From Candidatus Pacearchaeota archaeon (GTDB taxonomy: Archaea > Nanobdellota > Nanobdellia > Pacearchaeales > GW2011-AR1), in contig JAAOYJ010000024.1 in NCBI GenBank assembly GCA_018221285.1, positions 13,156 through 77,155 of the forward strand: a DNA stretch of 64,000 nt, written 5' to 3'. The translations under genes were made by a program, and so were the position numbers. The number at the start of each line of letters is the position of its first letter. Within the stretch, counting starts at the first letter, position 1. Of the stretch, positions 20,947 through 25,163 are shown piece after piece. Below the pieces are notes generated by a model. The model searched no databases and was not told where the DNA came from. It saw only the letters and a list, made by a program, of their open reading frames with translations.

Positions 20947-22830
20947 ATGCCTAATCGATCTGAATTCCTGCGACTTTGTGAAGAGAATGAGTATTCTAAG
21001 AGAGAGATTGATCTTTTTAGAAAGGCTCTTGATTATTCAAAGGAGCAGTTTAAAGCTGAAAAGAGGTTATCTGGCGAGCTAGTGATGAGACATAATATTG
21101 AAATTGGAAAAATTTTGGTTAAGTCGAAACTTTTCCCAGAAGTTGTTGTGGCAGGTATTCTTTATGGGGGAGAGGGGAAAGTTCTTCCAACTGAACTTCA
21201 GAAAGAATTTGGAAAGGAGATTTCTGATTTGGTTTATGGCCAATCACAGTTAAAAGTTATTAAGTCAAAGAATGAAAATGTTGAAGCAGAGACTTTGAGG
21301 AAAATTTTGTTAGTCACTATCAAAGATGTTCGGATTATTTTTGTGAAACTCGCAGATAAGTTGGATAATCTTAAGACGATGAGGGTGTTACCTGAAAAAG
21401 AGCAGAGGAAAATTGCAGAAGAAGTTCTTGAAGTTTATGCTCCACTTGCAAATCGTTTTGGATTGGAGTATATTCGGCGTAGATTAGAAGAGAGGGCATT
21501 TAAGATTCTTAATCTTCGTAGATATAATGAGATTGTAAATTTTTTGAAAGATTCAAAAGAGAATAGGCAGAAGTTTGTTAAGGATTTTATTGGAGAGGTT
21601 AGTAAGAAGTTGGGGGGGAAAGCTAAGATAGTTGGAATTAAGGGAAGAGAGAAGCACATCTATAGTATTTATAAGAAACTTCACAGGGAGAGTTTACATA
21701 ATCAAAGAGATCATTTTGCGATTAGGATTATTGCTAAGTCTGTTGATGATTGTTATAAGGCTCTTGGGATTTTGCATGAAAATTATGAAGGGGGAAGGCT
21801 GAAAGATTATATTGCTTCTCCGAAACCAAATGGTTACCAGTCATTGCATACTACTTTGAATATTGTAGGAAAATATGTGGAAGTTCAAATTAGGACGCAA
21901 GAGATGGAAGAAGTTGCAGAGGAAGGTGTTGCTTCGCATTGGTCTTATAAGAAGTTGAAATCAGATGAGAATTTTGAAAAGAAAACTGCGTGGTTAAGGT
22001 CTGTTTTGGATTTGCAGGCTAATGAGAAGGATAAGGAATTTTTGAAGACAGTTAAGTTGAATGTTTTTGGAGATAAGATTTATTGTTATACTCCTCAGGG
22101 AAAGGCGATTGATTTGCCAAAAGGGTCGACGATTCTTGATTTTGCTTATCAGATTCATCAAGAGGTTGGGAATCGTGCTGTTGGAGGGAGGATTGATGGG
22201 ATTTATGCGTCGCTCAGGAAAGAGTTGAAAAACGGCGAGGTTGTTGAGATAATGACTAATAAGAACCAGAGACCGAGGAGAGACTGGGTTAAGTTTGTTG
22301 TATCTGCCCGTGCAAGAAGTATAATTAGAAAAGAAGTTAAGAGGTATGAAAAGATTCCTGTGGCTAAACATTATTCAATTAAGGAATCAGAGAAAGAGAA
22401 GTTTGATGATTTGACTTATTCTTTAGAGTTTCCTAATCATAAACTTTCTTTGGCAAAGTGCTGCTCTCCGATTCCAAAGAATGAAATTGTGGGAGTGATT
22501 AAATCTCATAGAAAGATTTCAGTTCATGTTAAGGATTGCAAGAGGATAAAGGAAGCGGTAGATAGAATTATTCCTGTTTTCTGGAAAGAGACTTTTAATC
22601 GTCCGATAAAGATTATTGTTGAGGCGTCTGATAGGTCTGGGATACTGGCAGATATGCTTAATACGATTTCTCGAGGAGGTTTTGTTGTGAAAGAAGCAAA
22701 TGCAAAGTTGATTAGTAATGGGGCCTCTGAATGTTCTTTTGTAATTGTTCCTCAGAAGCTTGAGCATATAGTTAATTTGATAAAAAGGATAAAGAAAGTT
22801 CGGGGTGTGCAGAAGATTTGGTTTGAATAA
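20947..22830 (+). CDS. long RelA/SpoT homolog (HD-like, synthetase, TGS, ACT); hydrolase motif degenerate
   Basis: Synthetase motifs GREKHIYSIYKKL, DHFAIRII, KDYIASPKPNGYQSLHT, VEVQIRTQEM, ASHWSYK. TGS region IYCYTPQGKAIDLPKGSTILDFAYQIH. ACT-like C-terminus. The position of the hydrolase LLHDxxEDT motif reads ILYGGEGKV. Confidence 0.85.
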   Translation: MPNRSEFLRLCEENEYSKREIDLFRKALDYSKEQFKAEKRLSGELVMRHNIEIGKILVKSKLFPEVVVAGILYGGEGKVLPTELQKEFGKEISDLVYGQSQLKVIKSKNENVEAETLRKILLVTIKDVRIIFVKLADKLDNLKTMRVLPEKEQRKIAEEVLEVYAPLANRFGLEYIRRRLEERAFKILNLRRYNEIVNFLKDSKENRQKFVKDFIGEVSKKLGGKAKIVGIKGREKHIYSIYKKLHRESLHNQRDHFAIRIIAKSVDDCYKALGILHENYEGGRLKDYIASPKPNGYQSLHTTLNIVGKYVEVQIRTQEMEEVAEEGVASHWSYKKLKSDENFEKKTAWLRSVLDLQANEKDKEFLKTVKLNVFGDKIYCYTPQGKAIDLPKGSTILDFAYQIHQEVGNRAVGGRIDGIYASLRKELKNGEVVEIMTNKNQRPRRDWVKFVVSARARSIIRKEVKRYEKIPVAKHYSIKESEKEKFDDLTYSLEFPNHKLSLAKCCSPIPKNEIVGVIKSHRKISVHVKDCKRIKEAVDRIIPVFWKETFNRPIKIIVEASDRSGILADMLNTISRGGFVVKEANAKLISNGASECSFVIVPQKLEHIVNLIKRIKKVRGVQKIWFE

Positions 22831-22836
22831 AAATAG

Positions 22837-22950
22837 GTTCGCTCCGCTCACGATGGGTGGCTTCGAATCCTCCTTCGGCAGGATTCTTCGCTGAGAGGTT
22901 GTTAATGAGTTAGCTTCGCATAGTGTGTTGAGAAACTATTATTGTTATTA
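22837..22950 (+). repeat. mosaic intergenic repeat, copy E
   Basis: GGCTTCGAATCCT-loop-AGGATTCTTCGC hairpin + TGAGAGGTTGTTAATGAGTTAGCTTCGCATAGTGTGTTGAGAAACTA. Confidence 0.8.
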
Positions 22951-23004
22951 CTTCTAAAAGATAACAGTAGGAAGATTTATAAGAGTGAAAAATTTACTAA
23001 ACAA

Positions 23005-24018
23005 ATGAATATTGAAATAATTGATATATTAGTTGCGAGATTAAAAGATGCCCCAGTTGAAAAGCATCTGTTAGAAGCCCACCAGGATTTTTTGTTAAGA
23101 ACAGGATTCAGAAAAGTTGGTGAAGAAGGTATCTCACAAGATTCTGGCGTACTTGCAATAAATAGGAGTATGTATGCAGTTCCAGTTGTAACTGATGTTG
23201 TGTTTCTTCCCTTTAGTCGTTTAGAAGAAACGAGCGAAGGATATTGTTTTGGTCCTGAAGATACTAATGCGATTCCAGTAAATATGTGGTACGGAAAATG
23301 GCAAGGAAATTTAGTAAGTAGAGTGGATCTTTTTGTTCCGAAGCATATGGATCCTTTTCTTTATATTAGTGAATCTCTCCCAGATTATACAGAAAGAGAC
23401 AGGAGTGAACTAGAAAGATTTGAAGTTAGAAAATTTATTAGAAGTAGGGAAAATATAGAAGCAGTATTCCCTAGTTTGTGTGAAAAACTTGAAAGAGTTA
23501 CTCAACCATTAGAAATGCAGGTTTCTGAATTTGACGAAATCAAAAGTAATATTTCAGATAACCTTGATCTTTTAGGAATTGATCATAAAATTATTTATAG
23601 GTCAAAAACAGTAGAAAGTGTTTTTAGTAAAGCTGAAAGGCGACTAGCTACCATAAATTCATATAACGATTTTACTTATGGAGATTTGGGGTGGTTAGTA
23701 GATAAGGATATACCTTCTCTTGAAGAGGTGGCTCTATATAGTCCAGACATAAATGGCATGAGAGTTATGGTTAAAAGTGCAGAAGAATGTTATAAGGCAC
23801 TTGATGTTTTATCTCAAGAATATAAAGTTGAGAGTGTTGAAAGAGATGATGGAACCCTATTTTATCGAATTTATGATTGTATTCCATTTCCAAAAAGAAC
23901 AGGGTTCCAGATGATAGGTTATTTTTCTGAGATTAATGGAAAAAGAATTCACTTTGAAATCCAATCCGAAAAGATGCAATCAAGGGCTGCTAATGACGGA
24001 TATCATCTGAGAGTTTAA
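23005..24018 (+). CDS. divergent RelA/SpoT-synthetase-like nucleotidyltransferase with an unknown N-terminal domain
   Basis: The C-terminal third parallels the neighbour's synthetase domain. YRSKTVESVFSKAERRL matches GREKHIYSIYKKL. DINGMRVMVKSAEECYKALDVL matches DHFAIRIIAKSVDDCYKALGIL. PFPKRTGFQMIGY matches SPKPNGYQSLHT. IHFEIQSEKMQ matches VEVQIRTQEME. ATG 23005 preferred because the track start lies inside repeat E. Confidence 0.5.
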   Translation: MNIEIIDILVARLKDAPVEKHLLEAHQDFLLRTGFRKVGEEGISQDSGVLAINRSMYAVPVVTDVVFLPFSRLEETSEGYCFGPEDTNAIPVNMWYGKWQGNLVSRVDLFVPKHMDPFLYISESLPDYTERDRSELERFEVRKFIRSRENIEAVFPSLCEKLERVTQPLEMQVSEFDEIKSNISDNLDLLGIDHKIIYRSKTVESVFSKAERRLATINSYNDFTYGDLGWLVDKDIPSLEEVALYSPDINGMRVMVKSAEECYKALDVLSQEYKVESVERDDGTLFYRIYDCIPFPKRTGFQMIGYFSEINGKRIHFEIQSEKMQSRAANDGYHLRV

Positions 24019-24101
24019 TCTTCAAAACCAATTCTACATAAGAACCATTTTCTCAATTACAATTAACAGACTTTTAGAAATCTGTGAGTTTACGAGCGCT
24101 A

Positions 24102-24854: not shown

Positions 24855-25163
24855 ATGAAAGAAAGAGATTTTTATTTTCCAGCGATATTAAAAAATTACA
24901 TTGAATTTCTTGGATTTGATAAAAGGGAATTTAGTCTATTAGCTACCCCTTGGCATGGATTTGCAGATGAGGTTGTAGAAAAGTATGGGTTTAAATTAGA
25001 AGGAGTTGTTTTAGAAGGGGAAGGGTGTAAAACGTATACGTTAAGAGGATTAAAACAAGAATCTGGTCTTGTATTAATTGGAAAGGATTTTGGAGACGAG
25101 GTTACTTACTCTCAAGGATTGTGTAATGTGTTGAGGCATAAAGTTGTTAGCCTTCCTTCCTAA
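24855..25163 (+). CDS. hypothetical protein (102 aa)
   Basis: ORF track. The 3' end overlaps the convergent gene by 17 nt. Confidence 0.4.
   Translation: MKERDFYFPAILKNYIEFLGFDKREFSLLATPWHGFADEVVEKYGFKLEGVVLEGEGCKTYTLRGLKQESGLVLIGKDFGDEVTYSQGLCNVLRHKVVSLPS

Follow-up and report, generated by a model that had tools for sequence, protein, structure and literature searches.

Whether two RelA/SpoT-type proteins encoded one behind the other form a functional unit, and what the smaller of the two may do, is the question raised by a locus of a Candidatus Pacearchaeota archaeon. The window, i.e., the whole stretch of 64,000 nucleotides (nt) analysed here (contig JAAOYJ010000024.1, positions 13,156 to 77,155), carries at positions 23005-24018 a gene for a protein of 337 amino acids (aa), designated P0001, downstream of the gene of a long RelA/SpoT homologue (RSH), designated P0002. 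An earlier note, made from the sequence alone, had described P0001 as a highly divergent synthetase-like protein in tandem with the long RSH. Profile and fold searches agree that P0001 is a real synthetase-fold protein of the RSH superfamily. It is most like a small alarmone synthetase (SAS) with a core of the long-RSH type, and the tandem arrangement was traced to a single gene cassette, the pairing being specific to one species.

Domain architecture and fold of P0001

The reading frame is subdivided as follows:

23005..24018, + strand: coding sequence of the 337-aa P0001, stop included (open reading frame (ORF) listing and translation)
23005..23394, + strand: N-terminal domain, residues 1-130, two helices and some eight short beta strands, shared by every family member; predicted local distance difference test (pLDDT) of 63-87 in AlphaFold2
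23395..23580, + strand: helical linker, residues 131-192, four helices, homologous to the pre-core helices of long RSHs (profile alignment to RelA; helices 133-189 with pLDDT up to 97)
23581..24015, + strand: RelA/SpoT synthetase (SYNTH) core, residues 193-337, stopping before the canonical AxHxxYK helix (PF04607, PDB profile matches, and Foldseek)

The Pfam family RelA_SpoT (PF04607) matches residues 199-324 of P0001 with 33.9 bits (curated cut-off 27, E 4e-8), and relatives from the P0001 family, described below, reach 62-64 bits. In the Pfam/NCBIfam scan this is the sole domain of P0001; HD, TGS, and ACT domains were not found, and the protein terminates inside SYNTH. Of the NCBIfam models, the generic TIGR00691 alone responded, with 32.6 bits compared to a cut-off of 499. 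P0001 and the synthetase domain of P0002 share 31% identity over 78 aa in BLASTP (E 2e-8). Searched against the PDB, the family profile retrieves E. coli RelA (E 1e-15), B. subtilis Rel (9e-14), RelP (8e-9), and RelQ (1.5e-5), and the weakest similarity among the RSH classes is that to CapRel and FaRel2 (E 0.009-0.06). Profile positions 152-298 align to E. coli RelA, the match beginning at RelA residue 208 and ending at residue 348.

An AlphaFold2 model, computed from an input alignment of four family members and 29 synthetase domains, has a mean pLDDT of 79.9 and a predicted template modelling score (pTM) of 0.82; the single-sequence prediction has a pLDDT of 36. Two helices are followed by about eight short beta strands (49-122), four helices (133-189), and the alpha/beta core. 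All 31 Foldseek matches in the PDB at E <= 0.001 are RSH synthetases, with about 180 residues each. S. aureus Rel (7oiw) is the best match (E 1.9e-6), followed by RelA, Rel, RelSeq, RelP, RelQ, and SpoT, and the matches in the viral fold library are RelA/SpoT and Tas1 entries. The RelA/SpoT-like C-terminal domain proposed in the earlier note is thus borne out by Pfam, profile, and fold comparison alike, and the outcome named there as refuting it, a lack of the RelA_SpoT fold in profile or structure searches, did not occur.

The N-terminal region of approximately 200 aa, for which no motif had been recognised, proved to be of dual nature: approximately 130 aa indeed remain without a match, but residues from about 150 to 190 belong to the pre-core helices that align to RelA. 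Within the family, F35, G79, and L109-F110-x-P112 are invariant in the N-terminal domain, and the conserved features comprise “GF”, “SEG(Y/F)”, and “(D/E)LF(V/I/L)P”. Matches of this domain were absent from Pfam, PDB sequences, and the PDB and viral fold libraries, and its alignment to full-length long RSHs by hhalign gave a probability of 0.2% and no domain match. For pattern scans the alignment of the domain is too variable. Judged by these comparisons, the beta-rich domain of about 130 aa appears to be new, and it sits where long RSHs carry the hydrolase domain.

Donor and acceptor sides of the active site

Active-site residues were compared in a MAFFT alignment of the P0001 family with 29 canonical RSH synthetase domains, which reproduced all four motif pairings with the neighbouring protein drawn in the earlier note.

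23599..23631, + strand: donor (ATP phosphate) motif R199-x-K201-x3-S205-x3-K209, intact (alignment; role from the RelP/RelSeq literature, PMC7983052)
23746..23763, + strand: Mg-binding Asp motif D248-I-N-G-M-R253, intact, D248 corresponding to RelSeq D264 and FaRel2 D90 (alignment; PMC7983052, 10.1101/2021.04.30.441581)
23890..23919, + strand: remodelled acceptor motif P296-K-R-T-G-F301-Q-M-I-G305, canonical PKxNGYQSLH, with Tyr replaced by Phe and His by Gly
23950..23967, + strand: strand H316-F-E318-I-Q320-S321, canonical E-x-Q-I-R-T (BLASTP and MAFFT, same ungapped register)
23650..23745, + strand: acidic insertion, residues 216-247, private to P0001 (gap in the other members and in canonical RSHs)

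The Mg site of RSH synthetases is made complete by an Asp (RelSeq D264, RelP D107, FaRel2 D90) and a Glu (RelSeq E323, RelP E174); two Lys keep the terminal phosphate in place, and the acceptor base is contacted by a stacking Tyr (PMC7983052; 10.1101/2021.04.30.441581). R199, K201, S205, D248, C262, Y263, L266, D291, P296, K297, G300, and M324 are invariant in the family and the canonical enzymes; K209, R253, and Q302 are near-invariant and kept in P0001. The donor side, comprising R199, K201, S205, K209, D248, R253, and K297, is thereby intact. The acceptor side is altered throughout the family: GYQSLH is without its His, RxKD without its Lys, QIQT takes the place of QIRT, and the AxHxxYK helix is absent. 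In case of P0001, the stacking Tyr is replaced by Phe301, the His by Gly305 (this H to G change had been read correctly before), and RxKD by R-I-Y-D. The canonical GDP/GTP acceptor site, consisting of the Tyr and His of GYQSLH and of RxKD/ExDD, is therefore not present in P0001.

The catalytic Glu (RelSeq E323/RelP E174) is absent from P0001 as well; its position is occupied by His316, and Glu318 is found at the Gln position. Further changes in this strand are Arg to Gln320 and Thr to Ser321. A change of R-T to E-K, as given in the earlier note, results from a mis-registration, since the ungapped register of BLASTP and MAFFT yields these two replacements and identifies Glu to His316 as the key change. 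The spacings from F301 to H316 (15) and from H316 to M324 (8) equal the canonical distances from Tyr to Glu and from Glu to Met, which E318 does not fit. At the same position, P0006 and P0009 carry Glu-x-Gln and the three proteins of the Woesearchaeota genus g298 carry Asp-x-His. A His/carboxylate pair on the same strand face is thus found in opposite order in two archaeal lineages, and in these few sequences it suggests remodelling of the site rather than decay. The insertion of 32 aa at residues 216-247 is acidic (isoelectric point (pI) 4.05) and modelled with a pLDDT of 54-58.

Among known systems, the SYNTH domains of long RSHs (E. coli RelA, 5iqr; B. subtilis Rel, 6yxa and 8acu; S. aureus Rel, 7oiw; RelSeq, 1vj7) are the best profile and fold matches, pre-core helices included. 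P0001 has in common with them the donor motif RxKxxxSxxxK, DxxxxR, PK..G.Q, and an identical CY..L helix. It differs in the loss of the His of GYQSLH, in Tyr to Phe, in QIRT to QIQ(T/S), in the missing AxHxxYK helix, and in the replacement of the catalytic Glu by His. Unlike long RSHs, P0001 lacks HD, TGS, ZFD, and ACT domains and carries the unrelated N-terminal domain instead. The long RSHs of the same group of organisms, the DPANN archaea, are HD-SYNTH-TGS-ACT proteins of 620-700 aa in a clade of their own, and the P0001 family is located outside of it.

RelP and RelQ (6ewz, 6fgx, 5dec, 5ded) resemble P0001 as stand-alone synthetase folds without hydrolase and ribosome-binding domains (target-normalised TM-score about 0.5), but the family matches them less well than long RSHs (E 8e-9 to 1.5e-5). 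RelP and RelQ form tetramers through a C-terminal helix. They have this helix, canonical acceptor residues, and no extra N-terminal domain, and the P0001 family differs in each of these points. Toxic SASs (toxSASs) such as FaRel2, CapRel (8pu4, 7ztb), and Tas1 use the RSH fold with acceptors other than GDP/GTP, namely the 3' end of tRNA and adenine nucleotides. CapRel combines the synthetase with a regulatory extra domain in a single chain, as P0001 does with an extra domain, which is N-terminal and unrelated. In contrast to toxSAS modules, P0001 has no antitoxin gene, no fused C-terminal antitoxin domain, and no phage or defence context. By its sequence, P0001 has neither the acceptor His and catalytic Glu that mark a (p)ppGpp-making SAS nor the partner gene of a toxSAS module.

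Distribution of the family and genomic context

True homologues of P0001 detected by a HMMER scan of 1.84 billion representative proteins are P0004, P0006, and P0009 (278-313 aa), which have the N-terminal region as well as the C-terminal domain in common with P0001; the family thus consists of four clusters. Word-indexed homologue searches with the protein and the family alignment returned P0001 and P0006 only, and ordinary long RSHs or nothing were obtained with the family alignment from species-representative genomes, metagenomes, and viral contigs. A profile of the N-terminal domain alone, applied to 400 genomes of the phylum, found members in one other lineage only, the genus g298. In a separate sample of 201 genomes from the order of g298, members were again restricted to this genus, and a third g298 species was found there. 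With the host genome counted, the family is present in 4 of the 401 genomes of the phylum sample.

In all three g298 species the family gene is present, and its synteny with a RimK-like gene is conserved. For two g298 orthologues, the ratio of nonsynonymous to synonymous substitution rates (dN/dS) is 0.043 at a dS of about 1, and therefore strong purifying selection acts on the family. P0006 and P0009 are situated on short contigs from metagenomes or metagenome-assembled genomes, next to a metallophosphoesterase gene and an amidase. P0006 is followed by the calcineurin-like metallophosphoesterase gene (L014:1013-1621), the start of which overlaps the P0006 stop by 4 bp; the two could be a make-and-break pair, in a single case on a contig of 2.2 kb.

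A maximum-likelihood tree computed from 90 synthetase domains unites the five family members included, with a Shimodaira-Hasegawa-like approximate likelihood ratio support of 89, plus one extra sequence on a very long branch. The family is placed apart from P0002 and its orthologue in the same-genus genome G001, and apart from the main long-RSH clade of the phylum. Since all branches concerned are long, the tree supports the grouping and not a deeper placement. Judged against Pfam, NCBIfam, and PDB entries, the family appears to be a previously undescribed and very rare architecture of the RSH superfamily.

Several matches were rejected as members. A seeming match of the N-terminal domain in the collection scans (L123) belongs to a normal RSH of 560 aa. 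Phmmer matches of residues 277-324 to proteins of 1000-2500 aa are spurious and due to repeats of the Listeria-Bacteroides type (“PxRxGYxFxGWYT”). This accidental resemblance of window positions 23833-23976 (“PFPKRTGFQMIGYFSEINGKR”) to repeat proteins could mislead automated annotation. Weaker PF04607 matches in sister genera represent a different protein of about 360 aa outside the P0001 family, found at L111:1237-2352 and on L112, L113, L114, and L115 (genomes G400, G386, G329, G311, and G069). Its RelA_SpoT domain spans residues 89-198 with canonical GYRSIH and EIQIRS and is followed by a C-terminal extension of about 170 aa, an architecture which recalls fused toxSASs such as CapRel. G069 also encodes a SAS-like protein of 247 aa (L116).

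The surroundings of the P0001 gene comprise the following features:

22976..22982, + strand: TATA-box-like TTTATAA, presumably the own leaderless archaeal promoter of P0001, 29 nt upstream of the ATG
22892..22941, + strand: GC-richer dispersed repeat between the P0002 stop and the P0001 promoter (within 22831-23004)
20947..22830, + strand: long RSH P0002 (HD_4, RelA_SpoT, TGS, ACT_4), context only, with its own TATA box at -29 (Pfam/NCBIfam)
22945..24065 (+/- 10 nt), no strand: segment present here and absent in the same-genus genome G001 (ORFs of L007 and DNA alignment)

The host genome (863 kb in 43 contigs, 82% complete, GC 0.346) contains the window on a contig of 113 kb, and the P0001 gene is surrounded by archaeal core genes encoding eIF2-beta, MCM, TATA-binding protein (TBP), ATP-dependent DNA ligase, and rubrerythrin. 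Its reading frame of 337 aa starts with ATG and is unbroken, with zero internal stops. The GC content of the gene (0.339) deviates by less than one standard deviation from the gene mean of the genome (0.352), the GC content of third codon positions is 0.20 compared to 0.29 +/- 0.06, and the codon usage ranks at the 81st percentile among the long ORFs. The encoded protein is acidic (pI 4.96).

The motif TTTAWA starts at -29 from the ATG in 57 long ORFs of this genome and at -27 in another 32, which makes 89 of 341 with one of these two exact spacings. The modal position is -29, where the TATA boxes of both P0001 (22976) and P0002 (20918) are located. This fixed spacing indicates that leaderless transcription dominates in this genome, and it can be used for choosing start codons. 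ATG 23005 is taken as the true start because TTTATA occurs at exactly the modal distance, and since P0001 and P0002 each have a TATA box at -29, they are two separate transcription units. TATA spacing, codon usage, and intact frame give the P0001 gene a native and expressed appearance. The repeat at 22892-22941 has at least 22 further copies in the host genome and keeps the same position in G001. An Rfam family was not found for it, and the idea of a tRNA or attachment (att) site in the GC-rich stretch after the RSH was rejected, as neither a tRNA nor an Rfam match but the dispersed repeat is present.

In G001, the RSH (79% identical to P0002) is directly followed by the convergent TBP gene, with a spacer of 196 bp compared to 1271 bp here. 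The cassette of about 1.1 kb that makes up the difference contains exactly the promoter and the gene of P0001; terminal direct or inverted repeats around it were not found, and it represents either a gain here or a loss in G001. Another 51 genomes sampled from the taxonomic family of the host all lack the P0001 gene. For G401 and G426, the long RSH was located on a contig other than that of the family member, and adjacency to an RSH was found for none of the other family members. RelA_SpoT domains occur in 191 of the 401 sampled genomes of the phylum, in good agreement with the reported 41.7% for long RSHs in the Woesearchaeota (PMC8407392). At this proportion of about 48%, nothing can be concluded from finding a family member and a long RSH in one genome. 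The pairing of RSH and P0001 is specific to one species. The position of P0001 beside P0002 goes back to the gain or loss of a single 1.1-kb gene cassette and neither to duplication nor to an operon. The tandem module suggested in the earlier note is accordingly not supported, in view of separate promoters, the repeat between the genes, the distance in the tree, the lack of the gene in G001, and the separate contigs in G401 and G426; the check proposed there, on the pair in related genomes, found the two genes side by side with no other family member.

In P0002 itself, the hydrolase motif is degenerate (ILYG--GEGK with a deletion of two residues), compared to LLHDxxE(D/E) in the majority of the other long RSHs examined from the phylum. 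The branch that P0002 shares with its G001 orthologue is long and lies outside the RSH clade of the phylum. The host genome has no other HD_4 domain and hence no recognisable (p)ppGpp hydrolase. A second small indel near the cassette is indicated by a spacer between the genes of TBP and a membrane AlbA_2 protein that is about 260 bp shorter in G001; in the window, an ORF of 102 aa without G001 counterpart (24855-25163) lies between these two genes.

Proposed function and competing explanations

In the reading that we prefer, P0001 would be a functional, independently transcribed, cytoplasmic SAS-like enzyme of a very rare family found so far in DPANN archaea and uncultured samples. It would retain the binding of ATP-Mg and transfer the beta-gamma pyrophosphate, and the acceptor would be other than GDP/GTP because the acceptor-nucleotide residues of Rel/RelP are remodelled family-wide. 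The N-terminal domain, which is tightly packed on the core in the model (pTM 0.82), may supply acceptor binding or gate the active site. In the P0001 copy, with His316 instead of the catalytic Glu and Glu318 nearby on the same strand face, the activity may be altered or weak. Taken as a whole, a pyrophosphokinase that binds ATP-Mg, serves an acceptor other than GDP/GTP, and uses its N-terminal domain in substrate choice or gating is the reading we prefer, with a confidence somewhat short of even. It is tempting to go further and to see in the family a new DPANN branch of RSHs that pyrophosphorylates a non-guanine target and in which a His/carboxylate pair (H316/E318; D/H in g298) replaces Glu/Gln; this extended version we regard as doubtful.

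Several observations weigh against a functional enzyme of this kind. Catalysis may be lost through the His at the catalytic Glu position. No other member deviates as much as P0001, which differs at 16 positions from the agreement of the other three compared members, while the others have 6-10 such positions; most of the substitutions are conservative. It bears the 32-aa insert of low confidence and has no close orthologue, and the selection figure comes from its g298 relatives and not from P0001. As RSH domains were included in the AlphaFold2 alignment, the fold match depends partly on the profile match, and the model of the N-terminal domain was built from four sequences only.

The main rival to a stand-alone SAS-like pyrophosphokinase is a pseudo-enzyme or regulator, in which fold and nucleotide binding are kept and catalysis is lost, so that P0001 would serve as a sensor or partner, e.g., of ATP or of (p)ppGpp from the hydrolase-dead RSH, with the N-terminal domain as output or interaction module. 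It is in agreement with the fact that His occupies the catalytic-Glu position in P0001 alone, the relatives having Glu or Asp, that this most deviant member adjoins a hydrolase-dead long RSH in a genome without another HD_4 domain, and that the a-priori chance of landing beside the only RSH would be about 2 in 900. The Mg-binding Asp and the phosphate-binding Arg and Lys are all invariant, however, which is unusual in a dead enzyme; Glu318, on the same face as His316, could stand in, and the mirrored arrangement in g298 (Asp, then His) is under strong purifying selection. The adjacency to an RSH occurs in no other member. We judge a pseudo-enzyme to be rather unlikely. Recent acquisition followed by decay, or by lack of function in this host, would explain the absence from the sister species and from the 51 other genomes of the same taxonomic family, the lost catalytic Glu, the low-confidence insert, and the highest number of odd-one-out substitutions in the family. 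With a full-length frame free of stops, a promoter at exactly the modal spacing, host-like codon usage, all 26 family-invariant residues kept, and mostly conservative substitutions, decay is improbable. The different-product synthetase and the pseudo-enzyme, both named as options in the earlier note, thus stay under consideration, but its third option, a toxSAS module, lacks a partner gene or small adjacent ORF.

A further rival is a fused sensor-toxin of the toxSAS kind, similar to CapRel: here, the N-terminal domain would silence a toxic pyrophosphokinase directed at tRNA CCA ends or ATP until a trigger arrives, e.g., a viral protein. The patchy, strain-specific distribution with a 1.1-kb presence/absence difference between congeners, the single chain in which an additional domain is packed against the core (pTM 0.82), the altered acceptor site, and the lack of an obvious signature in the sequences of toxSASs in general (10.1101/2021.04.30.441581) fit this explanation. 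It is at variance with the neighbourhoods (RSH/TBP, RimK, metallophosphoesterase, amidase), among which no antitoxin-like partner, small adjacent ORF, or conserved neighbour occurs, and with a locus between MCM, TBP, and DNA ligase genes that is no defence island (PADLOC E 0.016 only). Similarity of the family profile to CapRel and FaRel2 is the weakest of the RSH classes, relatives on viral contigs were not found, and the g298 gene is vertically inherited in fixed synteny with a dN/dS of 0.043. P0001 is acidic, in contrast to the basic patches of tRNA-binding toxSASs (10.1101/2021.04.30.441581), and lacks the catalytic Glu; we consider a toxin of this type quite improbable. A partial tandem duplicate of the P0002 synthetase domain that diverged in place is suggested by the adjacent position on the same strand and the 31% identity, but is hardly credible: the N-terminal domain and the derived features are common to distant members that are not located beside an RSH, the tree places P0001 with its family and not with P0002, and the identity to P0002 is no higher than that to RSHs of the candidate phyla radiation and other archaea (23-29%). 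Duplication was rejected due to the shared N-terminal domain and the tree placement.

Detection of (p)ppGpp has not been reported for any archaeon (PMC8646023), and RelA/SpoT domains are encoded in almost one in two genomes sampled from the phylum. To these the P0001 family adds a distinct architecture, in which the donor side appears intact and the acceptor side rebuilt, and the impression of a functional RSH-SAS tandem is corrected. The question is raised whether the RSH fold here serves a new substrate, as it does in bacterial toxSASs. Predicted to be small, soluble, and easily expressed, P0001 is a candidate for asking what RSH-fold enzymes do in archaea, and if its target is indeed a non-guanine one, the product would be a new nucleotide signal or a modified macromolecule.

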